NCBI GenBank assembly: GCA_024276825.1
Contig: JAJRWI010000022.1
Span: forward strand, 1 to 12,926
Source of the DNA: an archaeon
GTDB lineage: Archaea > Asgardarchaeota > Thorarchaeia > Thorarchaeales > Thorarchaeaceae
Length of the DNA: 12,926 nucleotides
Reading direction: 5' to 3'
The position numbers and the translations under genes were made by a program. This document shows, in pieces, positions 2 to 12,926 of the stretch (positions are counted from its first letter, which is position 1; every line of letters starts with the position of its first letter). The notes beneath the pieces were generated by a model, which was not told the origin of the DNA, did not search any database, and saw only the letters and a program-made list of their open reading frames with translations.

Positions 2-808
2 CCGTTCTTTAATCATGGCACGGTCCACACAAGACGAGAACAGCTAGCGGCCTATTTGGATCACCGGGGAGTCCATCTGGCAAGGGCATTTGTTTCTGGT
101 TCGATGAGAAATCGGAGGGCACTCCTTCAATATTTCGCCAAGAATCGTCAGCAAAGCAGTCCAGATGTTTCAAAGCAACTGGAATCTCATGTGAAAAGCA
201 TCAGACAGATTGAGAGCGAGTTCAATGCATGGACTCCTAGCAGTGGATTACTTGACCGTGTCAGAGCTGAGATAATGGGCTTTGAGGCCCAAGCTGCAAA
301 GGTCTATTTTGCGGGACTGAAGGAAATTATTCCTGAGAAGTTCAACTTTGATGGTCGTGAGAAAAGACCTCCAAAAGATCCTGTCAATTCGCTATTGTCT
401 TACGGTTATACTCTGCTCTACAGCCGAGTGTTTACAGCAATTGCAGCTTGCGGACTGGAACCATTTGCAGGATTTCTTCATGCGGACCGATCAGGAAAGC
501 CATCTCTAGTTCTGGACATGGTCGAAGAGTTCAGGCAGGTGGCTGTTGACAGACTAGTGATTCGAATGTTGATGTTGAAGCAATTTACCCCAGAGGATTT
601 TGTAGTGGATGGAACGAGGATTATTATGACAGATGAGGCTCGTCGAAAGTTCTTGGGAGAACTGATTGAAGGCTTCAATTCCAACATTCGACATAAGGGG
701 AAGAAATTGATCTCATTGACTCAGGCGATGGTATATCAAGCTCGAAATCTCGTGCGATATTTGATAGGCAAGGAAAGGGAGTATAAGCCATATGTCTTCA
801 GGTGGTGA
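2..808 (+). CDS. cas1: CRISPR-associated integrase Cas1 (5' end outside the window)
   Basis: Frame is open from nt 2 (PFFNHGTVHTRREQLAAYLD...), so the TTG at 56 is not the true start. Cas1 motifs: MGFEAQAAKVYF, FDGREKRPPKDPVNSLLSYGYTLLY, GLEPFAGFLH, SLVLDMVEEFR (catalytic E/H/D present). Confidence 0.97.
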   Translation, partial: PFFNHGTVHTRREQLAAYLDHRGVHLARAFVSGSMRNRRALLQYFAKNRQQSSPDVSKQLESHVKSIRQIESEFNAWTPSSGLLDRVRAEIMGFEAQAAKVYFAGLKEIIPEKFNFDGREKRPPKDPVNSLLSYGYTLLYSRVFTAIAACGLEPFAGFLHADRSGKPSLVLDMVEEFRQVAVDRLVIRMLMLKQFTPEDFVVDGTRIIMTDEARRKFLGELIEGFNSNIRHKGKKLISLTQAMVYQARNLVRYLIGKEREYKPYVFRW

Positions 809-811
809 AGG

Positions 812-1102
812 ATGCAGCAAATTATTGTTTATGATATAGAAGATGATGCCTTGCGGACGAAGGTGAGCAATCTGCTGCAAGATTATGGTTTTGAGCGCGT
901 GCAGTTTAGTGTGTTCATTGGTTCAAGAACACAGAATGTTCTAAAGATGCTGGAGATCGAGATCAAAGATCTGATTGGAAAAAAGAAAGCGGATGTTAGA
1001 TTCTATCAGCAATGCGACAGATGCGTTGGAAAGACGATGATAGTATCAATAATTAGCAATACAGAATCTGCAGAGGTGATGTTCCCATGTCAAGGTCAAT
1101 AG
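812..1102 (+). CDS. cas2: CRISPR-associated protein Cas2
   Basis: 96 aa; IIVYDIEDD...R.KV..LL.DYGFERVQFSVF signature; C-terminal CxxC (CDRC); starts 3 nt after cas1 with SD-like AGGTGGTGA at 800-808. Confidence 0.97.
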   Translation: MQQIIVYDIEDDALRTKVSNLLQDYGFERVQFSVFIGSRTQNVLKMLEIEIKDLIGKKKADVRFYQQCDRCVGKTMIVSIISNTESAEVMFPCQGQ

Positions 1103-1689
1103 CTGTTAGGTCCTGTAAGGGGCCATTGCCAATGTTCAGTGTTGAGGACGTCAGGCAGTTTGTTTACTGCCCTAGGATAATCTACTTTCGCTACGTTCTT
1201 CGAAATATTCCTCAGGTATCAATCAAGATGAGAAAGGGATCCAAAAAACATGACCAATGGCGAAAGCGTCAGATCCAGCGCGGTGAGAGTTCAGACATAT
1301 TCTTTGGCCTCTTTTTCAAGTGTGAAGAGATTGGCTTGTGTGGACTACTAGATGCAGTCGAGTATGACGGTGAAACAGCAACACCTATCGAATTAAAAAC
1401 AGGCACTCATTTTAAGAATGATGTTTCTGCCCATCATCGTGCCCAAGTTATTGCTCAATGTGTCCTGCTTGAGTCCTGTCTGAATGTTAGAGTAAAGCAG
1501 GGCATTGTGATTTATTCGTCATCACGAGAACAACTCAAAGTAGACATTGGTGAAGAAGAAAGAGCGTGGCTGGAAAAGACTCTGTCAAGAATGCGTGATA
1601 TTGTCTTCTATGAGGAACTTCCCAGAGTATGCGAGTCAGAGGCAAAATGTGTGGACTGTGAATATTGGATGTGGTGCTTCCGTGTTTAA
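1087..1689 (+). CDS. cas4: CRISPR-associated exonuclease Cas4 (RecB-like, Fe-S cluster)
   Basis: QFVYCPRIIYF (first Cys), GLLDAVE and PIELK (RecB motifs), QVIAQ, C-terminal CVDCEYWMWC (three Cys). SD GAGGTGAT at 1073-1080 supports ATG 1087; alternative ATG at 1132. Confidence 0.95.
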   Translation: MSRSIAVRSCKGPLPMFSVEDVRQFVYCPRIIYFRYVLRNIPQVSIKMRKGSKKHDQWRKRQIQRGESSDIFFGLFFKCEEIGLCGLLDAVEYDGETATPIELKTGTHFKNDVSAHHRAQVIAQCVLLESCLNVRVKQGIVIYSSSREQLKVDIGEEERAWLEKTLSRMRDIVFYEELPRVCESEAKCVDCEYWMWCFRV

Positions 1690-1706
1690 ATACCAATTCA
1701 ATCAAG

Positions 1707-2591
1707 TCATTCAGAGGCAGATAATGATCTTTCAAAAGACCTTGTGTTTACCGCACCGAATCCAAAAGATCGCTTTGCCCCCACTCCCGAAAACTTTGCA
1801 AATCTTGTCAACAGGTTGACAATGTTGGCTAGGTCTTTTGATGCCTCTTTGGCAACCTTGTATCTTGTTCTACCAACAAAACCGGAGATAGGAATATGCC
1901 CTTTGATCCTTGCAGCTGCTGTTCTTATTGCATGCTGAGTCACGCACACATTTGATTTCAGGTTCTCCATGAACTTGTCCAACTCAATATGCAATTCATC
2001 TGGAGCAAATTTATTCCACAAGCTCGCAAGGCCTCCATACAAATATGTGGGCAGTGGAAACAGCATTGGAAATGATTCAGAGCGTATCTCAAATTTCGTG
2101 GGTGAGAGAAACTTGAACTCGTGAATTCTTGCACCAGTGCTATTTCTAATAATATCAACAAAGCTCATACTTTCAAAACGCATCCCCACAACCTTCAGAT
2201 TGACTTCTCCAATTCTGAGTGAACTTGACCAGTTATTGAAGATTCCTTCCATTATCCTTCTATTAACATCAAGTGACAGACTACATAGTCTAAAAGTCAT
2301 AATGAACCCTGGACGTATCTCCCATAATAATTCACGTTGATCGGACCTGAAGGGTAGCCTTATTGGAGCTACTGAATAGGGTCTACTTTTCTTTCCATCA
2401 TGCAATACTGAAACCAGTTCAGGATCATTCTTTGAAATCATGTGAAGAAGAGCTCCACGAATCAGATGTCCAGTGAAGTAATTGACTCTCCCGCTCTCCT
2501 CTGCAACAGCATCGACTTCAATCATCAATAAATCCTTGGGGGCAATACTTGGTATGTTCTCACTCACAAATCTTGGTACCATTTTCATCAC
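1707..2591 (-). CDS. cas6: CRISPR pre-crRNA processing endoribonuclease Cas6
   Basis: C-terminal G-rich loop FSGVGAKRSFGFG; N-terminal GHLIRGALL...LHD...RPYS; FLSPTKF, PLP and GFVG RAMP motifs. Start could be GTG 2591, ATG 2588 or ATG 2582 (GGAG at 2594-2591 favours the last). Confidence 0.95.
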   Translation of the reverse strand: MMKMVPRFVSENIPSIAPKDLLMIEVDAVAEESGRVNYFTGHLIRGALLHMISKNDPELVSVLHDGKKSRPYSVAPIRLPFRSDQRELLWEIRPGFIMTFRLCSLSLDVNRRIMEGIFNNWSSSLRIGEVNLKVVGMRFESMSFVDIIRNSTGARIHEFKFLSPTKFEIRSESFPMLFPLPTYLYGGLASLWNKFAPDELHIELDKFMENLKSNVCVTQHAIRTAAARIKGHIPISGFVGRTRYKVAKEASKDLANIVNLLTRFAKFSGVGAKRSFGFGAVNTRSFERSLSASE

Positions 2592-4687
2592 TCCTTATTC
2601 ATACTGATATATCGGGCTAATGCAACCAAACCACTTCCATCGAAGTATACCCTGGCCCCATTAGTGCTCTCTGCTACTGGATAACTCTCAAGACCCCACC
2701 CAAGACTTCTATGAGTGTCGTAATCAACAATCACATACATTCTATCAATGAAAAGACTGTTCAGTTCATCTACTCCTTCTTCATTGAGTGCAAGACCTAT
2801 TGGTGCACCAAGAAATTCGTCCTCATTAATTCCAACGAGGGGCCTGAACTGTCGCTCTTTGGGAAGATCAAACGAACAACTCATTTTAACATAACGCGAT
2901 TTAGTATTCATGTATTGGTATACATCCATTACACAGACCTTTCTTCCAGCGGAGTAGTGTATTCGGTACTCATCAATCAATGAGTTCATTGTATCTTTCG
3001 CAGTAGTATCGGTAATATTCTTTTGAAGCGCATAAAATGGGCGAAGTGCATCTTTTGGATCAGTTCCACGAATCTTGAATTTGGCAGCTCGACGAAGTAT
3101 TCTTGTAATCGGTGCAAAGTAGGCAGGGAAAAAGCCCTTCCGTTTGGCAGAATAATCGAGTACAAGTGCTTGTGGTTCTGAATTTCTAAGAGTTATGAAT
3201 TGTCCAGCAGCCTTTCGAATGAGTTCTTTCCATTCATCAATATCACTCAGATCATTTGCATCACCAAAAACTTTTGCAAAATATTTGTTTATTGATTCAG
3301 CACTCGCATGTGAGCTTGCTGCTGGTGTTGCTTCGATTAGTCTAATCAACTCATTGATCATTAATTGAGTTTCTAACTTTGCGATGGATGAGTCTAAATA
3401 CCATAACCCTGGGTCCTGCTCTCCATAAGCTGTCCTAATTAGCCCATTGAACTCGTCCCTTGAATTTATGGAATCAACATACTTCTTGAAATAATTGAAG
3501 ACATAGACCGGTGCAAACAGTATCGCTTGTCCCTCTCTATGACGCCCAACTCTACCTAGACGTTGTAGAGCTGAGGATGCATTCCATGCCTCAAACAATA
3601 GATGGCTTGTGTCAAAATCAATGCCAACTTCTATAGAACTTGTACCAACGAGAACTAATGCACCCGACCGATTACGACGCAAGGGTTGTGGAATGAGGCC
3701 ATGACTCTCTTTGATCTCAGATTCGTCAAAATCACCCATGAGCATCTCGGTCAATGCTCTTGCACTAATAACAGAATTGAGGATAACACAGGCTGGAATA
3801 TAGTCGTCATTAGGATTGTTTGCACGTAGCTCCCCTAGCTCCTCCCTCAGAGATACGAGGTGGTCTTTCATTTGAAGTAGATCTGCATCATCTTGTGGAC
3901 GAATCTCTATCTTGACATTATGAACTACAGTCATTCCTTGATCTTCAGACATGCATTGAATTGGATTTGGCCGTTTCATGTCACTAGCATGGACAATTCT
4001 CTTGAGATACTCCTGAATTCCCTTATGTGGCGTTGCTGTCATTAACAGGATTTGGTCGAACAGGTTAATGTATCTGGCAAGGGCAATATCGAAATATAAT
4101 GAAGATAGCTCGCGTTTCTCATATGAGTGAAACTCGTCAATAACCAGAGTCCTGTAATTACTCAGCGCCGCAAGAATCTCTGCTGCCCGTTTCCCATACC
4201 TCCTCTTACCCCCGTATCGCATTCGTATCATTAGGTGGAGTGTGTCAGGATTTGTAAGAACAAACTTCGTTCGCCCATCTACTCGTGGATATAACGCCCT
4301 CCTCAGAGCCGATGATTTTGAACTCAGCTCTTTCTCTTTAATCAGCCTAAGAAGATCTGCAGCGTGTACTGTAACAACTTCAGGCTCTTCTAATCCTGCC
4401 ACTTTACATATCTTTTTGATGCTCCTGACTTGATTCTCAATCAATTCGTTGGTCGGATAAACAAACAGTGCGGTTCTTGCTGCCCCGTCTAATGCAGCAA
4501 GAGTGGCTACCGCGGTCTTTCCCATGCCTGTTCCAGCGTACACTTCTAAAAGACAGGACTCACTCTTCTTAATCTCGTCCAAAGCTTGTGCTTGGTATTG
4601 GTAGAGATCAAGATTTCCAATTATGTGTCCTGATTGTCCGAGTCTAACAGGCGGGATGTTATAATTGACCTGGTCATCATCACTCAT
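2588..4687 (-). CDS. cas3: Type I-D Cas3' SF2 helicase (no HD domain)
   Basis: Q-motif YQYQAQAL, Walker A AGTGMGKT, YPTNELIENQ, LTNPD, DEFH, MTATP, ILNSV, GTSSIEVGIDF, QRLGRVGRH. The helicase starts almost at the N-terminus, leaving no room for an HD domain, as expected for I-D. Confidence 0.93.
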   Translation of the reverse strand: MSDDDQVNYNIPPVRLGQSGHIIGNLDLYQYQAQALDEIKKSESCLLEVYAGTGMGKTAVATLAALDGAARTALFVYPTNELIENQVRSIKKICKVAGLEEPEVVTVHAADLLRLIKEKELSSKSSALRRALYPRVDGRTKFVLTNPDTLHLMIRMRYGGKRRYGKRAAEILAALSNYRTLVIDEFHSYEKRELSSLYFDIALARYINLFDQILLMTATPHKGIQEYLKRIVHASDMKRPNPIQCMSEDQGMTVVHNVKIEIRPQDDADLLQMKDHLVSLREELGELRANNPNDDYIPACVILNSVISARALTEMLMGDFDESEIKESHGLIPQPLRRNRSGALVLVGTSSIEVGIDFDTSHLLFEAWNASSALQRLGRVGRHREGQAILFAPVYVFNYFKKYVDSINSRDEFNGLIRTAYGEQDPGLWYLDSSIAKLETQLMINELIRLIEATPAASSHASAESINKYFAKVFGDANDLSDIDEWKELIRKAAGQFITLRNSEPQALVLDYSAKRKGFFPAYFAPITRILRRAAKFKIRGTDPKDALRPFYALQKNITDTTAKDTMNSLIDEYRIHYSAGRKVCVMDVYQYMNTKSRYVKMSCSFDLPKERQFRPLVGINEDEFLGAPIGLALNEEGVDELNSLFIDRMYVIVDYDTHRSLGWGLESYPVAESTNGARVYFDGSGLVALARYISMNKE

Positions 4688-5384
4688 TCAGGTTCCCTCG
4701 CAGATGCTTGGGCATTGGAACAAAGAGTTCAGTTCCATCATCTTCTAAAACATAGTATGGTGCTTTCACTGTCATCCTTCTTGCAATGGGCGATGGAAAC
4801 ATCAATACAATATCTGCAGACTCAATGATGTCACTGGGGGATAGATCTAACACATTGAAAAAGAAGTTCACATCAATCAAGTCTTCTGGGTCATCAATTT
4901 TCCCCACCAGCTTCAGTCTGGTCGCTTTTACTTGGGCTATGCATGACTTTTTACCAATTCGAATATATGGGGGCATTCTCTCGCCAGTGGAAAAGACCAA
5001 GAACTCAAACTTAGTAGAATAGGGTGTCACCTTACGATTACGTCCCAATGAGGGGATATTAAAACTGGATTGTGTCAAATTAGTTCTGGAACAGACCGAG
5101 TTATACGTATGCGTCACGAATTTCGGGTCTGTCAGTGGTCTTGCTGGTGTGGCATAGTTCTCAAACTTGTAAAGTTCCTCATATCTTGGACTGGTTCCTA
5201 GGAAGCCTGTGTTAAACTGCTTTGCCAAGGCATAGGTCAGGGCATAATTATGAATCACTGGCTGCATTTGTGTGAATGTGTTGAACTCATACGACACGAA
5301 GAATAGGAAGTCCTCGGGTATGAGTTCACATCTGTACACTGCCTTGATCAAGCCTATCACCTGGTCTTTCTGGTCATTTGCCAT
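4680..5384 (-). CDS. cas5: Type I-D Cas5 (Csc1/Cas5d)
   Basis: YRCEL...DFLFFVSYE, IHNYALTYAL, YATPARP, PPYIRIGKK match the Csc1 pattern. The ORF-track start (5516) overlaps cas7 by 143 nt and is rejected. Real start is ATG 5384, or TTG 5351 (preceded by AGGTGA at 5362-5357). Confidence 0.9.
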   Translation of the reverse strand: MANDQKDQVIGLIKAVYRCELIPEDFLFFVSYEFNTFTQMQPVIHNYALTYALAKQFNTGFLGTSPRYEELYKFENYATPARPLTDPKFVTHTYNSVCSRTNLTQSSFNIPSLGRNRKVTPYSTKFEFLVFSTGERMPPYIRIGKKSCIAQVKATRLKLVGKIDDPEDLIDVNFFFNVLDLSPSDIIESADIVLMFPSPIARRMTVKAPYYVLEDDGTELFVPMPKHLRGNLNE

Positions 5385-6321
5385 TGAGGATTTTTTCCCT
5401 GAATGATGCTGCATCAGTGTACATTTTCTCAATCCACTTCTTGGTTGGCTTCGCCTTTCGCAACTGCTGCTCAAGAGCAATGACTTCATCCTTGGAAAGG
5501 ACTTTGTTGTTCCCATCCCTAATCATTGCGAGTATTCCATTATGAGTTGCCTCGAGGATATTGTCGTAAGTAAGAATTGGATTCTCTTTTTCTTCAACTA
5601 GTTCTTCATAGATGTCCATAGTTAGCCTGAGAGCTGAGAATTGCTCTGAGTCAGAGAACACAAGGCTGAGAATCTTGTTCTCTATGACCCCCATCCCACG
5701 TGTTTCTGCACCGTATCTAGTCGTATTGAGCATAGAATACAGATAGAACTTTAGCTCATCCAATGTTGGTGCCAATAGGGTCACTACTGAGATGAAATGG
5801 GTGTCTGGCTTGACCAGCTCTCGCTCACCTAATGCCTGCCCTGTTTTTGTGGTCTTTTCATTGACTGCATTGAATGTGATGCTCTCTACAACATCTTCAA
5901 ATGGCAATATCGAGAATGCGGTCTGATATAGAAGCCGACTCTTTATTGAGATCTCTCCAGCACCCTTTTCTGCTTTAATCCCGCCATTTAATGCACACAC
6001 TGGACATTTCAAGCATAATTCATCCTTCAAATAGCATTCATCTGCTTCAGGCATGATGTCACGAATGATCTGTGATTCATGACGTCGCTCAACAGCCTTT
6101 TGTTTTGAGGCAAGAATCAAAGCACGATCGATTATCTTATTGGCTTTCTTTGAGGCAGGTGTAGCAACACTGTTTGTATACTTGTCAGCCTCCGTCCTGA
6201 ATGCCGCATAATCGAGTGTGCGTCTCAAGATGGCAATGCTCACATATTTTGCTGGTGCAAGTGGTGTTGGTTTGTCGATAAACCACTCACTCTCCTGATC
6301 AAGTAGTTCTATTTTCATCAC
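5374..6321 (-). CDS. cas7: Type I-D Cas7 (Csc2) backbone subunit
   Basis: YVSIAILRRT, SKQKAVERR, Cys cluster CYLKDELCLKCPVCALNG, KSRLLYQTAFS, TRYGAET. SD GGAGGT at 6333-6328; start GTG 6321 or ATG 6318. Confidence 0.93.
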   Translation of the reverse strand: MMKIELLDQESEWFIDKPTPLAPAKYVSIAILRRTLDYAAFRTEADKYTNSVATPASKKANKIIDRALILASKQKAVERRHESQIIRDIMPEADECYLKDELCLKCPVCALNGGIKAEKGAGEISIKSRLLYQTAFSILPFEDVVESITFNAVNEKTTKTGQALGERELVKPDTHFISVVTLLAPTLDELKFYLYSMLNTTRYGAETRGMGVIENKILSLVFSDSEQFSALRLTMDIYEELVEEKENPILTYDNILEATHNGILAMIRDGNNKVLSKDEVIALEQQLRKAKPTKKWIEKMYTDAASFREKILNGK

Positions 6322-6705
6322 CTATTTACCTCCTTTTTTTGATTGAAATTTCTCATTGATTGAGATTAACCTCTTTAGATATACTGCGTAGCGTAAGTCA
6401 TCAAGGATCTTTTTACGACTCCTTGCACTCTCTTTCTCAAGTCTTTCAGCCAAATCTTTACAGACCTTGAGAATTGGTTCTGCCGCTTCAGAATACAGAT
6501 AATCTCCTTTGTTCAATTGTTGTAGCTGTCGATGAACTCGTCCAGCAATAGACTCTATCCTCTCAGAATCGAGAGTTGGAGTTTTTCTAAATTCTACATA
6601 TAGAGCATTTATCGGTCCTAGTATGGAATGCATGGATGATCCATACTTCTCAGGTCGATAATATTGCTCTAGGATATCCACTATTTCATCCACTAATGTT
6701 CCCAT
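6322..6705 (-). CDS. cas11d: Probable internally translated small subunit Cas11d (in frame within cas10d)
   Basis: AAGGAAGTGGAT-ATG-ATG inside cas10d: SD-like GGAAGTG at 6718-6712, ATGs at 6708 and 6705. The product would be the 127-128 aa helical C-terminus. Internal translation of Cas11d is established for I-D systems. Confidence 0.75.
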   Translation of the reverse strand: MGTLVDEIVDILEQYYRPEKYGSSMHSILGPINALYVEFRKTPTLDSERIESIAGRVHRQLQQLNKGDYLYSEAAEPILKVCKDLAERLEKESARSRKKILDDLRYAVYLKRLISINEKFQSKKGGK

Positions 6706-8982
6706 CATATCCACTTCCTTTAATCCTGTTAGAACCATTAATTCCTGCTCACTTAAGCGGGGATATTCACGTTTGAGAAGTATTCTTTGGGCTAACTGTC
6801 CTGGGTGAGTCGTCAATGCTTGCTGAATACCATTGCGTTTTGAGAGATCGGCAAACAATCGGGCACGCATTGCGAGTGCAATTTTCAGTCCGATTCGTGC
6901 TGCATCGTTAAAATCAACAACCCCTTTTCTAAGTCCTAAAGTCCTGAGAAGACTTCCATTTCCAGGAAAGATCACTGCACCATCTAATTCATTGACATCC
7001 ACCATGTCCAACCCTTCAATGATCTTTACCCTCACTTCGAGAATCAGACTCAATGTCAGTGCTTGCAATAGAATCATTGCTAGGCCTTCAGAATTAGCAA
7101 GACCGGTTCTGTCAGGGCTTGTACTCATAATCACATAATTGCCCATGATGTTGTCTGAAATTTTGAAAGGTTCGCGATCGGCTACACATAACTTTTCCAA
7201 TCGCTCCTTGATCTCAGCGGCGTGGTTTACTACCTCTCCACTCAAGAACATCTTTACAGACTTTTCAGGACTTCGATCCAGCCTTCTGAGATATATCGCC
7301 TTTTTTCTTAGACTCTCTGCTCTCTCCGCCGATATAGACACCTGAGGTACCAGAACATATCCATAGCCAATGGCACCTCTAAGAATTCCTTCAAGCAAAC
7401 ATAATTTACAGATGTTGATATTATCAAGGCGCGTAGTCCCAATTCCGACATTTACGAACTTCTTAGTTCCAGAACCCACGCCCGCAGCAATTGCCTTTGT
7501 TCCAAGTGCGGCAGATCCACATATGGGACACCTCACGTTGCCATCAATTGAACCCATCGCACTCTGCTTCGCACTCAAATATGTCTTATGAAATTGATCG
7601 GCCACTGCGTGAATTGGGCTAGGGCCCGCAGAATTTGACAGCTTGGCATTGATTAAGACTGGATGTCCCACATCGGTGATTAATTGTATTAGATAATCAT
7701 CAATCTCAATTGATTTGAGCGGGTCAAATTCATCACTTGAAAAATAGCTCATCATCTCTTTGACAAGTTGAAGATACCCCTTCTTTATTGATGTGAGCAC
7801 AGAATCTAATGGCATTGTCAGAAGGTCTCGTGAGGCGTGTCCTCCCAATTGGAGTGCTTTGGAAACCTTGTCAATCTCTCCATTCCAAAAGTCATAACTC
7901 ATTGGAAGCCCTATCTTGCCAAGATCCAGTCCGAGAATCTTTAACTCAAGAGTTGACAGCTCATCAGTTGCCTTTTGCTTCTCAGACTCGTCAATATCAA
8001 GCAGATTGATCTTCCTACGCAGCGCATCTTGAAGAGTTGAAATGAATCTCAGAAATATGGCACGTTTTTGTTCATCCGTTTTTTGTGGAAGAGAAGCTGT
8101 TCTTGATTCAGCATACTCTATGAAAACAGGCAGTGAGTCGAGTGCCACCAGACCCTCGTTTGCAATCATGGCCCGATTTATCTGCATTGCAGTAGAACTC
8201 TCAAGAAATGTCTTTTCTAAGAGAGCATTTTTTAGGAGAGTTCCAATTCGTTCTATTACTTGCTCCTTCAGACTGTTGATGTCAGGTCGCTCTCTTCCAA
8301 GAAATAGACAACCATTAGGAAATACAGCAAGCGTCTTGAGTCCATTTTCATTGTATGTTTCTTGCAATGCTTTATGCAGGATGTAAGTCAAGACTCCACG
8401 AATTTTTAGCAAAGAGTAGTACTCAAAATATATACTGAACTGCTCAAGAATTGGTTGGAAGTCTTCTGCTTTTGTTGCACGATACGCATCTTCGGGTGTA
8501 TTGGCAGAAGCAATCCAGTCTGCAAGTTTAGTGATGTCTCCCAGAAATATCAACGAGGAGGTCTCCCCTCCCCTACGTACCTGTTTTTCAGCCCTCAATG
8601 AAGATACTGTTTCTCCAATCCCTCGATGCGTGGCAATTACTACTGCAAACACATCGTTTATCAAAGAATCATCTGAAATCTCGCAAAGGCTCAAGAATTC
8701 ACCAATTTGGTCGTGTGTAGGGAGATGGGGTGGGGTCTTGCCTTTTTGGAGGCCTTCCTGAAACTCAGGAAACTCCTTACCCAGATCATGAAGAAATGCT
8801 GCTAGCATGAGGACCTTTCTCTGTGTGCGATCAAGGTCAAATGTATCCGCGATAGTCAATGCAATATCCATTACTGCTTGCGAATGGGCCAAAATTGTCT
8901 GACTTGGATGACTCTTCGCAAGCAGTTTGTGCCAGTTTCTGGTTCTTGCTGCTTTGACAAGGTCCTTCTCAGTGATCTTCAT
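6322..8982 (-). CDS. cas10d: Type I-D large subunit Cas10d (Csc3) with N-terminal HD nuclease
   Basis: 886 aa; Cas3-like HD domain (LAKS..QTILAHS, AFLHDLGK, IATH, KLADWIAS); Zn finger CPICG...CKLC; helical C-terminus with YYRP...SMHSILGP; lies directly upstream of csc2 and csc1. Confidence 0.9.
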   Translation of the reverse strand: MKITEKDLVKAARTRNWHKLLAKSHPSQTILAHSQAVMDIALTIADTFDLDRTQRKVLMLAAFLHDLGKEFPEFQEGLQKGKTPPHLPTHDQIGEFLSLCEISDDSLINDVFAVVIATHRGIGETVSSLRAEKQVRRGGETSSLIFLGDITKLADWIASANTPEDAYRATKAEDFQPILEQFSIYFEYYSLLKIRGVLTYILHKALQETYNENGLKTLAVFPNGCLFLGRERPDINSLKEQVIERIGTLLKNALLEKTFLESSTAMQINRAMIANEGLVALDSLPVFIEYAESRTASLPQKTDEQKRAIFLRFISTLQDALRRKINLLDIDESEKQKATDELSTLELKILGLDLGKIGLPMSYDFWNGEIDKVSKALQLGGHASRDLLTMPLDSVLTSIKKGYLQLVKEMMSYFSSDEFDPLKSIEIDDYLIQLITDVGHPVLINAKLSNSAGPSPIHAVADQFHKTYLSAKQSAMGSIDGNVRCPICGSAALGTKAIAAGVGSGTKKFVNVGIGTTRLDNINICKLCLLEGILRGAIGYGYVLVPQVSISAERAESLRKKAIYLRRLDRSPEKSVKMFLSGEVVNHAAEIKERLEKLCVADREPFKISDNIMGNYVIMSTSPDRTGLANSEGLAMILLQALTLSLILEVRVKIIEGLDMVDVNELDGAVIFPGNGSLLRTLGLRKGVVDFNDAARIGLKIALAMRARLFADLSKRNGIQQALTTHPGQLAQRILLKREYPRLSEQELMVLTGLKEVDMMGTLVDEIVDILEQYYRPEKYGSSMHSILGPINALYVEFRKTPTLDSERIESIAGRVHRQLQQLNKGDYLYSEAAEPILKVCKDLAERLEKESARSRKKILDDLRYAVYLKRLISINEKFQSKKGGK

Positions 8983-9081: not shown

Positions 9082-10527
9082 TTATTCATCAATTTCCCTA
9101 ATGTCTTTATTATCAAACTCCTTTTTAATTTGAATACAATATTTAATGACTTGGTGATTATTGATATTTATCCGAAAGGTCATTTTTGCACTTGTCTTTC
9201 TTGAGGCCAATGTAGTGATCAATTGAAGTTGCTTTAGACTGTCAAGTAATTTTCCAGGAACTGGATATATGTCGGTCTTCTCATGAGGTTGGGTATACCT
9301 GTCTGGAAATCGCCCCTCAAGTATTTGTGCACCAATATGAATCTGGTTTGCAGTCCTAACGCCCATTCTGTCTTCGGCAATTCTAAAGCGCTGCGGGTCC
9401 TCTTCCATCAAGAGTTGATCATGTAAGAATGCAAGAACAAGATAGTCAAATACATTCAAGATGGGCGAGTCGAGTTTGGGCATACCGGGAAGTTGGAAAA
9501 GTCTATTTATTGTTGGCACCAATTTGCTCTTTAATGGCTCAGTGCATCCTGCCAGAAAAATCACATCTTTTGATTGAAATTGTTGAAGCCAGTCTGTAAA
9601 TTCTTTCTTCAAATCCAGCTCAATTTTGGCAAGACCAATCGTATCTGCAATCTTCTCAAAAGCCCTTCTTTGATAACTCCAAGGCAGGATGTGCGCGGTT
9701 AATTTCTTGGAATATACATAGTGGTGTGATGAGTGACTGATGAACAAGCATTCAATCAACTCACGAATGGCTCTTCTATGTGAGATATCACTATCACGGA
9801 CCGTGTGCCACAACACAGGAATTACAACCCTTTGAGCAAATGCAAAGAACACAGCATTACATAATCTTTGCATCAATAATTTGGAAGTCTGTGAGCCAAC
9901 CTCTATCGTCACATGATTATTGTTTTGAATGGAAACAATAGAAAAACTGGAATGGCTTGAGTCTTGTTTTCCGGACTTGATTAAATCGATTTGAAAGCAA
10001 TCGGAGAAGCTTGGCCTAATTTGATCTTTACACCCAAATAGAGCTTTAGAGATAATATGTTTCGTTTCCTTGAGTCCATTGAATAATTGATCTCTCTGAG
10101 ATTTGACGAGTTCAGCAGGAATCTTGGCTTGAGTTGAGGTTGTAATTCTTCTTCTGACCTCTGCATATAGTGATGGATATACGAGTATCTCCTGAACTAC
10201 ATGAAATTCCGCAGAGTCAAAAGTCTCATGATAGGCATGCTTTGCAATCAAAGGAACGGGCATTCGATGTTTCATTCTATGATCATTTGAAATTCGAGCT
10301 TGATGCACAGACATCCCAAGCATCGGACCCTTCAAAGTCCATTTTAGCAGACCATGACCATTAATGAAAGTTTTAGTTTCGAGATTTATTCGTCTTGCCA
10401 AGCACTCCTTAAACTTCGACCATAATTCATCCCGATTGCCAAGGAATAACAAGTCTTGTCGAAGCTCTCTATTAAAGAGAACTACTTCAGGAAGGGGCAT
10501 AAAAGATGAGATTTGGACCCGATGCAT
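9082..10527 (-). CDS. Hypothetical protein (481 aa), possible C-terminal winged helix
   Basis: Long ORF; SD GAGGTG at 10541-10536; TAATG stop/start overlap with the upstream gene. The C-terminal pattern LNVFDYLVLAFL...TANQI...LLDSLKQLQLI...FRIN resembles a wHTH (weak). No family recognised. Confidence 0.8.
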   Translation of the reverse strand: MHRVQISSFMPLPEVVLFNRELRQDLLFLGNRDELWSKFKECLARRINLETKTFINGHGLLKWTLKGPMLGMSVHQARISNDHRMKHRMPVPLIAKHAYHETFDSAEFHVVQEILVYPSLYAEVRRRITTSTQAKIPAELVKSQRDQLFNGLKETKHIISKALFGCKDQIRPSFSDCFQIDLIKSGKQDSSHSSFSIVSIQNNNHVTIEVGSQTSKLLMQRLCNAVFFAFAQRVVIPVLWHTVRDSDISHRRAIRELIECLFISHSSHHYVYSKKLTAHILPWSYQRRAFEKIADTIGLAKIELDLKKEFTDWLQQFQSKDVIFLAGCTEPLKSKLVPTINRLFQLPGMPKLDSPILNVFDYLVLAFLHDQLLMEEDPQRFRIAEDRMGVRTANQIHIGAQILEGRFPDRYTQPHEKTDIYPVPGKLLDSLKQLQLITTLASRKTSAKMTFRININNHQVIKYCIQIKKEFDNKDIREIDE

Positions 10528-12047
10528 TATGTTCCCACCTCAAAGTCGACATCACTAATCCACCAGTCCTTATAACCATCTAGCCATCTGTGAACGGGAA
10601 GTTTCCATTTGATAAAATGCATATCTCCCAAATATGTTATCCACCGTTTTCTTCCTCGCAGGAAATCATTTAGATCCTCTACTATGTCTCTCACATGTTC
10701 TTCAGGAACTCTGAGCACTAATGATGTATATCCCTCGACTGTTCGTTCAGCATACACCTCTGGTAAACATGACACTGCATTACATAATTGCAAATGCAAT
10801 TTATGAGGGATTTTTGTCATGACTACTATTACTCCAGGTGCAAAAAGGGGGGTTGGGATCACTCGATTAATAATCACATTATGTTCTCGAAGTCTATTGT
10901 GCCTTTCTACCACAAAATTGTAGTCTTTCTTGAGAATGTTTCTAAGCTCACGGAGTGTTAACGGGCCTTTGCTTGTCAAATGACTTATGATCTGAATATC
11001 TGTTTCATCAAGAAGAGTTCTTTCCAAATCGGATTCCAATGATTGTTGGGACATATCATCTATTTCTCTAGTAAACCCTGAACGCATCATTGGGCTGAAA
11101 ATTCCTGTTTGGACCTCCCATGTGACACCATTAAACATGTTGTAATTGAAGTGCATCCAATTCATGGGTTCTATTCGGTTGAAAACATTGACAAATCTCA
11201 CATCGTCAAGCTCACTCAATTTGCGGACCCAATTCCTTGCCTCAGATTGCGACCTCCATGAATCAGGTACCACAAAATGGGCAATAGCAAAGTGGGATCC
11301 CATTCTTGATTCAAAGAGACTATACAACCAAGGATTGTTTGCAGAGAATGCAGGAGGAAGTTCTGCATCAAGACTTGTGAGTTCCACTAGCGCTATTAGA
11401 ACTTGCAGGCCCAAAGCTTTGAATGAGAATCTTACTCTCTCCCACAGTATCACTCTCTCCTTAAGACTGTTAATCACTCTTGAAACATAGCCTTTTGTCA
11501 TGCCCAGTTGCCTTGCAAGCTTAGTTGGTGAGAGAGTCTGTTGTTCAAGGGCTAATCGAAATACATCGAGTTCTCGTGCTGTGAGTCTGGGGGTGAGATC
11601 AGCTCGTATTCTGAAAAACGCTTTCAGAAAATCTTCAACAACTGCAGTTTCGGATTGATTCAACAACTCTCTGTAAATTCTTATGAGGTGCTCGAATCTA
11701 TCGGGTGCTTGCAGAAATAGATAGTACGCCCCCGGTGGGTCATATATCCTGCTTGTCAGATCACCTCTTATCTTTGTGGTGGACGCCCACAACTGCTCCC
11801 AATTCTTCAACTCATCCCAACTCAACCCAAGTCTATCTCTCAATAACTGTTCCACTCTGAAGCATACCAAGTCCCATCCAATAGTGCCAGGTGCCGCAAA
11901 TAATGACTCTTGCATTTCGGCCGCTTCGTCTGATATCTGATCCAGCTCACTAGACTTCTCATTCCAGATGTCCTTCAATAGCTCTATCAGCTGGCCAATT
12001 CTCGTTACTGCCTTTTTTGCCACGCGATACAAATTGGAATTCTCCAA
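10527..12047 (-). CDS. Tandem winged-HTH (Lrp/AsnC-like) transcription regulator with an extra N-terminal domain
   Basis: Two wHTH units (LTARELDVFRLALEQQTLSPTKLARQLGMTKGYVSRVINSL...FKALGL; LDETDIQIISHLTSKGPLTLRELRNILKKDYNFVVERHNRLREHNVI), each followed by an alpha/beta segment compatible with an Lrp RAM domain. Start uncertain: TTG 12047 or GTG 12023. Confidence 0.75.
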   Translation of the reverse strand: MENSNLYRVAKKAVTRIGQLIELLKDIWNEKSSELDQISDEAAEMQESLFAAPGTIGWDLVCFRVEQLLRDRLGLSWDELKNWEQLWASTTKIRGDLTSRIYDPPGAYYLFLQAPDRFEHLIRIYRELLNQSETAVVEDFLKAFFRIRADLTPRLTARELDVFRLALEQQTLSPTKLARQLGMTKGYVSRVINSLKERVILWERVRFSFKALGLQVLIALVELTSLDAELPPAFSANNPWLYSLFESRMGSHFAIAHFVVPDSWRSQSEARNWVRKLSELDDVRFVNVFNRIEPMNWMHFNYNMFNGVTWEVQTGIFSPMMRSGFTREIDDMSQQSLESDLERTLLDETDIQIISHLTSKGPLTLRELRNILKKDYNFVVERHNRLREHNVIINRVIPTPLFAPGVIVVMTKIPHKLHLQLCNAVSCLPEVYAERTVEGYTSLVLRVPEEHVRDIVEDLNDFLRGRKRWITYLGDMHFIKWKLPVHRWLDGYKDWWISDVDFEVGT

Positions 12048-12067: not shown

Positions 12068-12107
12068 ACCTATTATCATTGTTTCATAACTATTGGAACC
12101 TATTATC
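12068..12107. repeat. 10-bp direct repeat ACCTATTATC x2
   Basis: Exact copies at 12068-12077 and 12098-12107 (30-bp period), flanking the imperfect palindrome GTTTCA-TAACTAT-TGGAAC. Confidence 0.7.
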
Positions 12108-12389
12108 TCTGATGTTTTCCGCCCAATTACGTCAGGGAGTTTCACGTCAGATGTCCTGGCGGAGGTGATAAGATGCATAATCCGCCAGGAGACCCATCTC
12201 CTGTTCCACCATGGTGCTAATTGGAACTCCTGAATGATATCCAACAAGCCAAAAGCTTGTTTCAGTATAATTGTTGGGATGCCCTTTGAACCAAGCTCCA
12301 GATCAAGGAGTTTCATACGGCCTAGACCCTGAATCAATCAGGGTCTTACCCTCAGACAACATGACGAGGGCATCCATCTCTTTTTTCTT
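12081..12389 (+). ncRNA. Putative structured RNA of unknown family
   Basis: Perfect stems 12154-63/12181-90 (10 bp), 12203-08/12222-27, 12243-49/12255-61, 12277-85/12367-75 (9 bp), 12324-32/12338-46 (9 bp), plus 12293-99/12307-13 with one G-U. G-U pairs favour the + strand. Ends in a T-tract at 12381-12389. Boundaries are approximate. Confidence 0.5.
12173..12220 (+). CDS. Putative 15-aa proline-rich mini-peptide MHNPPGDPSPVPPWC
   Basis: Perfect archaeal SD GGAGGTGAT at 12161-12169, ATG 12173, TAA 12218-12220. Confidence 0.45.
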   Translation: MHNPPGDPSPVPPWC

Positions 12390-12877
12390 ACACATATTCC
12401 TATTAACATATCGATTGAATCAACCATTAATGATATTGTTCTGATTTTTATGTGCTATTTAATTCCAAATGCGATCCATAATTTCCCACTTCTATCTCAC
12501 CAAGATTCGTGCCTCCGAGTCCCAATAGTATTCTTGACCTATTGCATACTAATGGAAAAACATTAGTCACATCATAAGCCCCCTTCTTTAAAATAATGCT
12601 ATTTTATTCTCCAATATACTCCAAATAGGGTATCTTTATGTGCATTTTTTAGACAGCAGTTTATTAGATTCAATTTATTGTTTTTCGCAGTTCCCCATCT
12701 CGTTAATTGCAAAAATGATGCGATTTCATTACTATAATTGGCAAAATAGCACTCTAGTCGCAGATGTCCTACCGTGGTCTATTATTAATTGCGCATCACA
12801 AATGTTGAACTCCGCCAAATTTTTGAACATACCCCGCCATAGTGGCAAAAACTAAATACTTTTAGGAAAATGACAGG
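12390..12877 (+). promoter_or_regulatory. AT-rich CRISPR leader region (5' limit uncertain)
   Basis: Non-coding and AT-rich, directly 5' of the repeat; BRE/TATA-like AAAAACTAAATA at 12847-12858. Confidence 0.6.
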
Positions 12878-12926
12878 GTTGAAGATCAAAAGCCTCAGCT
12901 AAGAGGATTGAAAGTTCATTGACATC
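12878..12926 (+). CRISPR. First repeat (12878-12914) and start of the first spacer of a CRISPR array running off the window
   Basis: 37-nt GTTGAAGATCAAAAGCCTCAGCTAAGAGGATTGAAAG: GTT start, CCTC/GAGG hairpin, canonical 8-nt ATTGAAAG handle right after the stem, preceded by an AT-rich leader next to a cas operon. Only one copy is visible. Confidence 0.8.

Follow-up and report, generated by a model that had tools for sequence, protein, structure and literature searches.

The 309-nt stretch at 12081-12389 of the window, by which we mean the entire 12,926-nt contig of a Thorarchaeota genome, holds, as judged from sequence comparison, two things rather than one RNA switch: a plus-strand mini-gene for a proline-rich peptide and a minus-strand domain of two hairpins. 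Tentatively, and with slightly less than even confidence, we read the mini-gene as the effector gene of a three-gene Asgard cassette, a toxin-like RNA that would stall ribosomes and would be silenced by proteins, possibly also by an antisense RNA. A 48-nt gene of this kind is overlooked by gene callers, both partner proteins are unannotated, and the regulation and safeguarding of CRISPR-Cas in Asgard archaea are essentially unknown. In the literature searched, which was covered incompletely and included the Heimdallarchaeum genome paper (PMC8813620), we found no description of the cassette.

The cassette and its surroundings

The type I-D cluster of the window carries cas1, cas2 and cas4 on the plus strand and cas10d, cas7d/csc2, cas5d, cas3 and cas6 on the minus strand (Table 1). 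Beyond it lie two coupled genes on the cas10d strand, encoding proteins of 481 and 501 amino acids, then the element, an AT-rich leader and a CRISPR repeat. The repeat is followed by 12 spacer bases (12878-12926 in all), where the contig stops; these bases recur in cas10d (6988-6999), and the 12-mer occurs five times in the genome. The remaining array lies on contig C22 of the same genome, which carries the repeat 14 times (L015 5307-6353). In one relative (L013 14215-14974, G011) the array beside the element is reversed and has a repeat different from that of the window, the cas genes being orthologous.

Table 1 Features of the window, with the basis for each
Feature	Position	Strand	Basis
Type I-D cas cluster	2..8982	both	Pfam matches; gene order repeated in relatives
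481-aa gene, translationally coupled, directly upstream of cas10d	9082..10527	-	C-terminal winged helix, large N-terminal domain
501-aa gene, divergent from mini-gene	10527..12032	-	N-terminal helical domain and two fused wHTH-RAM (Lrp/AsnC) modules
Operator-like imperfect palindrome, AAyT-n9-ArTT	12123..12144, core 12125-12141		14 Thorarchaeota loci
Full 8-nt archaeal Shine-Dalgarno (SD), GGAGGTGA	12161..12168	+	Nearly all homologues keep the SD
Mini-ORF, 15 codons and stop, MHNPPGDPSPVPPWC	12173..12220	+	Homologous SD-led frames in 31 loci
Closing stem round variable 3' region of mini-gene transcript	12277-85/12367-75	+	Pair probability ~1.0
Two-hairpin RNA domain, 65 nt; candidate antisense RNA 5' end	12315..12379	-	Conserved
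T-tract, candidate archaeal terminator of mini-gene	12381..12389	+	After last stem in essentially all homologues
TATA-like hexamer, candidate antisense promoter	12401..12406	-	25 nt upstream of domain
First CRISPR repeat, 37 nt	12878..12914	+	AT-rich leader before it; contig end cuts array

Mini-ORFs related to that of the window were first spotted in DNA upstream of genes for homologues of the 501-aa protein. In aggregate, the set comprises 31 peptides, each 14-26 residues long, collected from Thor- and Heimdallarchaeota as well as further Asgard-type contigs, and all 31 loci have the double-Lrp gene (the homologue of the 501-aa gene), its winged-helix partner or both. The product encoded in the window contains PPG, DP and PPW motifs. 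A full SD precedes just 6 of 1888 long ORFs of the genome, and that of the mini-gene is predicted to be largely paired, with either the proline codons or bases upstream.

Among the 14 Thorarchaeota copies, entropy is 1.41 bits at the third codon position against 0.40 and 0.51 bits at the other two, pN/pS over a 10-codon core is 0.30, and three prolines are invariant with all four proline codons in use. Together, these values point to selection on amino acids rather than on codons. A D-P-x-P-hydrophobic-P core, a pattern chosen post hoc, recurs in 26 of the 31 peptides and matches 3 of the 4611 SD-led short ORFs of the genome. The peptides are proline-rich with net charges from 0 to -6, and none of the 31 contains a hydrophobic or signal segment. 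A separate 49-codon ORF (L143 2221-2370), 1.6 kb from distant homologues of both regulators, has a proline-rich tail behind a basic N-terminus and a hydrophobic segment; this candidate member is possibly an export-tagged form of the peptide.

Presence of the mini-gene follows the regulator pair. The sole frame picked up in screens of 8-20 kb regions was the one beside the cassette, all 22 loci with an adjacent pair and intact upstream DNA have it, and it is mostly missing near Lrp-like paralogues without a nearby partner. Its placement varies: besides the layout in which it diverges from the Lrp-like gene, it lies in rearranged cassettes divergent from the partner (L139), on the same strand upstream of the partner (L142) or isolated (L084), the lone position having the array on one side and cas genes on the other. 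This variable position argues that the mini-gene acts in trans and is not an attenuator. Many copies adjoin cas genes of several types; about 11 have none in the DNA covered. At one locus (L140 6001-9209) the order is partner, mini-gene, double-Lrp gene, flanked by Csc2-type and type III-B (Cmr) clusters.

Two winged-helix proteins and a candidate operator

The 501-aa protein (AlphaFold pLDDT 86; Pfam HTH_24) resembles NirDL (Foldseek E 2e-7), and a VIA comparison gave Z 14.7 with 283 residues aligned at an rmsd of 5.1. Its NirDL/Lrp-like part comprises the C-terminal 350 aa, and its N-terminal domain has conserved Trp/Tyr/Phe columns. In the 481-aa partner (pLDDT 92), residues 346-475 resemble ORC/Cdc6-type winged helices (Z 9.4, rmsd 3.1, 94 aligned); residues 1-321 resemble an MJ0711_N cluster (TM 0.45/0.58), their fold being uncertain, and whole-protein fold searches were swamped by the winged helix. 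The partner has 54 relatives at 50% clustering and invariant Arg/Tyr/Gln residues, with no Pfam, NCBIfam or PDB sequence match and a sub-threshold MAD7 lead from ESM features (0.81). Neither regulator matches WYL or CARF. Complex prediction for the two gave no answer (score 0.00), which counts neither way.

Some homologues of the regulators contain an internal stop or are split (L138 1501-2931 in G089, L076/L077 in G110, L073 in G198), which suggests that the cassette is decaying in places. On contig C4 of the Thorarchaeota genome (L082 2391-5128) lies a second double-Lrp paralogue, which is 34% identical and divergent from a shorter HTH gene; neither a partner gene nor a mini-gene was detected beside it. 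The same contig has a tRNA-Sec called by ARAGORN.

Upstream of the mini-gene, the palindrome lies 17 nt ahead of the SD in 10 of the 14 Thorarchaeota loci; it is the best genome match by 11 bits and unique in the genome. We infer that it may serve as an operator for the neighbouring regulators. A 10-mer that it has in common with this genome's CRISPR repeat is absent from the repeats of two other genomes (G009 and G011) and was treated as a chance match. Heimdallarchaeota copies (L022, L024, L055-L060) have a different conserved palindrome, TCGGGTA-n3/4-TACCCGA, about 115 nt before the SD, as well as a different multi-hairpin 3' tail.

At the other end, the T-tract presumably terminates the mini-gene. 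Some homologues have hairpins just before it that, by eye, contain plus-strand G-U pairs, which fits a plus-strand 3' end. A scan for sigma-70 promoters and intrinsic terminators, ill-suited to archaea, found none above shuffles.

A conserved minus-strand hairpin domain

The two hairpins (stems 12372-12365/12354-12347 and 12346-12338/12332-12324) are preserved intact at 11 Thorarchaeota loci, and linkage to cas was shown for 10 of these. Across these loci, 99.5% of the cells expected to pair do so on the minus strand against 86.9% on the plus strand, and compensatory changes are seen at 7-8 pairs. Among 35 non-Watson-Crick cells, 34 are minus-strand G-U and 1 is plus-strand G-U; the cells are not independent events and reduce to about 6 within helices, all on the minus side. 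On that strand, the loop of the second hairpin reads UUGA or UUCG and thus has the YUNR motif in 11 of 11 loci. Similar TATA-like hexamers lie 22-25 nt upstream in 5 of the 11 loci, with weaker AT-rich sequence in 3 and none in 3.

A covariance model run against 86 family genomes found the domain at cassette loci only. Two loci without adjacent cas genes have decayed copies (22 and 13 bits, compared with 72-86 for intact ones) that sit past the T-tract of the mini-gene; in a quick tree, whose cas labels were drawn from type I-D queries only, these two form one clade nested among cas-linked copies. Apart from these two cassette loci, weak matches to the model (13-23 bits) in other Thorarchaeota fell in coding regions, a tRNA flank and unrelated intergenic DNA and were set aside, and viral contigs searched by pattern for the paired hairpins gave 0 matches. 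An intergenic hairpin like that with the YUNR loop stands beside another conserved hairpin in two genomes (L010/L117 in G051, L116 in G061), and the cassette was not found in either.

Judged by these patterns, the domain is probably an element in its own right on the minus strand, which could be an antisense RNA or some other structure linked to Cas. The second option, a Cas-related element that is not antisense to the mini-gene, is a possibility that we take seriously and would be compatible with either main model of the mini-gene: it could be the 5' structure of a long leader on the cas operon, a Cas-bound small RNA or a pair of ssDNA hairpins, to which G-T wobble would also be suited. The contrast between intact domains in cas-linked loci and the decayed, displaced copies is consistent with such a role, as is the lack of a minus-strand U-tract after the domain in the window. 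Three observations speak for antisense instead: YUNR loops are typical of sense/antisense RNA contacts (PMC6562991), every intact domain overlaps the mini-gene at its 3' end or lies directly against it, and the decayed copies, sharing one clade, amount to a single loss event.

A stalling RNA or a peptide ligand

The proline-codon CreT of Pseudomonas blocks translation, and tests showed that it depends on an SD, a hairpin and consecutive prolines, whichever codons encode them (bioRxiv 10.64898/2026.06.02.729485). The five strongest pause motifs of E. coli are PPW, PPD, PPG, PPN and PPP (PMC13602936). These make up 28 of the 34 sense PP-X triplets found in 26 of the Asgard peptides, a count to be read with the caveats that the loci are kin and hence not independent and that the pause hierarchy is bacterial, archaea having aIF5A. 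In long ORFs of the genome, the same five triplets account for 26% of PP-X, and PPW for 0.7%. A further 8 cases of PP-stop stand beside the 34 sense triplets. Overall, 30 of 31 peptides have PP and one lacks it, 28 of 31 have a strong pause triplet or a Pro-stop end, and three have weak PP-X only. Asp-Pro repeats likewise stall ribosomes (PMC11381351), which can account for the conserved Asp. Taken together, the CreT precedent, the pause triplets, Asp-Pro stalling and the rare full SD lead us to favour a stalling RNA.

In the mechanism that we propose, the regulators would bind the palindrome and keep the mini-gene off; proteins are preferred as the silencer because no CreA was found. Once the regulators responded to a cue or were lost, with viral shut-off as one possible occasion, the mini-gene would be released, and a short, stable RNA would load ribosomes via its unusually strong SD. 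Held at Pro-Pro and Asp-Pro motifs, these ribosomes would lower translation, as with the Pseudomonas proline-codon CreT, and the cassette might thus form a dormancy or safeguard switch beside CRISPR-Cas. More weakly, a convergent antisense RNA starting near 12376 could act as a second lock by pairing with the message towards its 3' end.

The D-P-x-P-hydrophobic-P core exceeds what stalling would need and suits a binding site. A close rival, to which we give somewhat less weight, takes the peptide itself as the product: a polyproline-II ligand of the N-terminal or RAM domains of the regulators, through which a signalling or feedback circuit would set the expression of the cas operon. A strong SD and a stable RNA would then serve to supply enough of a short-lived peptide, possibly one that reports translation capacity. 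Fixed Asp and hydrophobic or aromatic positions in the core across Thor- and Heimdallarchaeota, the divergence of regulator and peptide genes, and the conserved aromatic columns of the Lrp-like N-terminus and invariant Arg/Tyr/Gln of the partner all fit a ligand. So do the general absence of the mini-gene beside partnerless Lrp-like paralogues, the ligand-sensing habit of type I-D locus regulators (PMC10212523) and the 49-codon candidate member, which, with its hydrophobic segment and its tail rich in proline, points towards a peptide as the product. Several features weigh against it, namely that binding does not require the strongest pause triplets, that the peptides are acidic, 14-26 aa long and encoded in a cassette without signal sequence or processing peptidase, that neither regulator was identified as a TPR/RRNPP fold (their N-terminal domains having been little compared separately), and that the literature searched held no archaeal precedent.

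Combining these elements, the regulator pair, not Cascade, might gate a Pro/Asp mini-gene that stalls ribosomes or is a ligand, so coupling translation state to the expression of CRISPR-cas of types I-D, I-B-like and III, with a Cas-linked antisense RNA acquired in Thorarchaeota as a further layer of control. As a whole, we regard this composite model as rather unlikely. A stalling RNA toxin would extend the 2026 class of proline-codon toxins to archaea with a different control logic, and would open aIF5A-dependent stalling to study in the organisms most closely related to eukaryotes; a ligand would represent a peptide-regulator circuit of a kind undescribed in archaea. Operator, SD, 15 codons, a 65-nt domain and two soluble proteins make up a compact, well-delimited set of parts, so that the models are separable in vitro.

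Folding of the stretch and weaker readings

The original prediction described the stretch as an unannotated CRISPR-associated structured RNA, attenuator or switch with mutually exclusive folds. All the pairings that it quoted were found in place, and the structure is real by comparison with shuffles: for 12081-12389 the folding energy is -100.7 kcal/mol on the plus strand (z -4.26, equalled by 0 of 100 shuffles), the minus strand gives z -2.29, and twenty other 309-nt windows of the contig range from z -1.9 to +3.0. An Rfam search returned no family, with chance matches only at E<=10. The absence of SRP, RNase P and tRNA hallmarks was borne out by the location of both of the former RNAs on other contigs of the genome and by a tRNA/tmRNA search that gave none. 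Being single copy in the genome, the stretch is not a MITE. C/D-box sRNA was also considered and rejected on the lack of conservation of the boxes across homologues.

The competing folds are for the most part unbalanced. The helices are all present in the sequence, and the clash between the closing stem and 12349-53/12366-70 involves a conserved helix; the other alternatives have near-zero probability (0.00 for 12241-47/12271-77, 0.00-0.05 for 12186-91/12198 and 0.00 for 12186-91/12227) and are unconserved. Alternative helices can be forced only at a price of 5-7 kcal/mol, and most homologues lack 12222-12318 or have unrelated sequence there. Ahead of the T-tract, homologues have an equivalent long-range stem or a local hairpin. 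The idea of a CRISPR-associated RNA is borne out in part by the conservation of the element, its frequent proximity to cas genes and covariation in its 3' domain, but what is chiefly conserved is the peptide frame, and cassettes with no cas genes alongside are also seen. Neither the SD-led frame nor the strand of the conserved 3' domain featured in the first reading.

A cis-acting leader-peptide attenuator or riboswitch of the MgtL/TnaC kind, in which a ribosome on the proline codons would pick the closing stem or the hairpin and so govern read-through into the CRISPR leader or interference with a convergent transcript, is improbable. In the window copy the closing stem does overlap the 12349-70 hairpin, which costs 5.2 kcal/mol to force, and a same-strand array follows in the window and at four other loci (L037, L014, L083 and L039). 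Such a device has no common target, however: the array is reversed in G011 and absent beside the element at L041, L042, L044 and L093, and no downstream gene is common to the homologues, among which the element varies in position and orientation. The distance from stop codon to domain ranges from 27 to 157 nt, the conserved hairpins fold on the opposite strand, and the mini-gene has been relocated in several genomes. Together with the unpopulated, unconserved state of most alternative helices, these findings leave the attenuator or switch originally proposed without support.

A short conserved peptide beside two large proteins, the 501-aa one with the enzyme NirDL as its best structural match, might also suggest a RiPP-like precursor modified by its neighbours; this is very improbable given peptides with no leader/core split, a cassette with no known modifying enzyme, protease or exporter, DNA-binding winged helices in both proteins and a palindrome at the promoter. 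Least probable of all is a true CreTA, in which the mini-gene would be CreT and a degenerate repeat at 12285-12318, loosely like the repeat stem and in type I-D context, would yield a Cas6-processed CreA guiding Cascade to the promoter: in a repeat scan, the best candidates for a degenerate copy (19-21 of 37) did not rise above background, the 12285-12318 hairpin is shared with the closest relative only, the 3' region had no match to the promoter above shuffles at 13 loci (in an exact-match test that a very degenerate guide could escape), and the mini-gene persists without adjacent cas genes.

Comparison with known systems

The closest likeness is to the proline-codon CreT of the type I-F CreTA of P. 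aeruginosa (bioRxiv 10.64898/2026.06.02.729485), which likewise combines a strong SD, a Pro-Pro mini-ORF indifferent to synonymous change and a 3' (protective) hairpin at a type I CRISPR-cas locus. In that CreT, a frame of 4 codons and a stop has PP as its last two residues, and repression is exerted by Cascade that CreA guides. The Asgard mini-gene is archaeal and differs in having 14-26 codons and the D-P-x-P-hydrophobic-P core; its cassette has two wHTH proteins and a palindromic candidate operator, with no CreA found, occurs also without adjacent cas genes and carries an antisense-strand domain. PP-stop is seen in 8 Heimdall-type copies and L139, PP-W/F-stop in several Thorarchaeota copies and PP-W-C-stop in the window copy. 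Of the defining features of CreTA, the strong SD, mini-ORF and downstream stem-loop are present, codon rarity is not conserved, and no creA with degenerate repeats flanking a promoter-matching spacer by a PAM was found. The mini-gene may therefore work like CreT yet falls outside CreTA. The haloarchaeal tRNA-sequestering CreT/CreA (PMC8501985) is similarly archaeal, with SD, mini-ORF and stem-loop beside cas genes, but relies on two rare codons, whereas the Asgard mini-gene uses all four Pro codons with unconserved identity and lacks a pseudo-repeat antitoxin.

Type I toxin-antitoxin pairs with convergent antisense RNA, such as bsrG/SR4 and txpA/RatA (PMC6562991), also have a small-peptide mRNA with an occluded SD and a structured opposite-strand RNA overlapping the message, with a YUNR loop, features that are predicted here. 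Their toxins are mostly hydrophobic membrane helices, unlike the acidic, proline-rich Asgard peptide, and the antisense-strand domain, a candidate transcript, is limited to one clade.

Rgg/SHP and other RRNPP pairs of Bacillota place a tiny peptide gene divergent from the gene for a DNA-binding regulator. Those regulators are TPR proteins, compared with a double Lrp/AsnC fusion and a wHTH protein in the archaeal cassette, and their pro-peptides are exported, whereas the 31 Asgard peptides have no export signal. MgtL, whose N-terminus is acidic-proline, and TnaC-type leaders resemble the mini-gene as short SD-led ORFs with Asp-Pro and Pro-Pro motifs that affect the ribosome; they act in cis on a fixed downstream gene, which the Asgard mini-gene lacks. 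Finally, WYL (Sll7009) and Csa3/CARF regulators (PMC10212523) share the sensor-plus-wHTH design and the position at the head of a type I-D operon, and the Asgard regulators, which match neither family, are distinguished from them as a coupled pair accompanied by a mini-gene.
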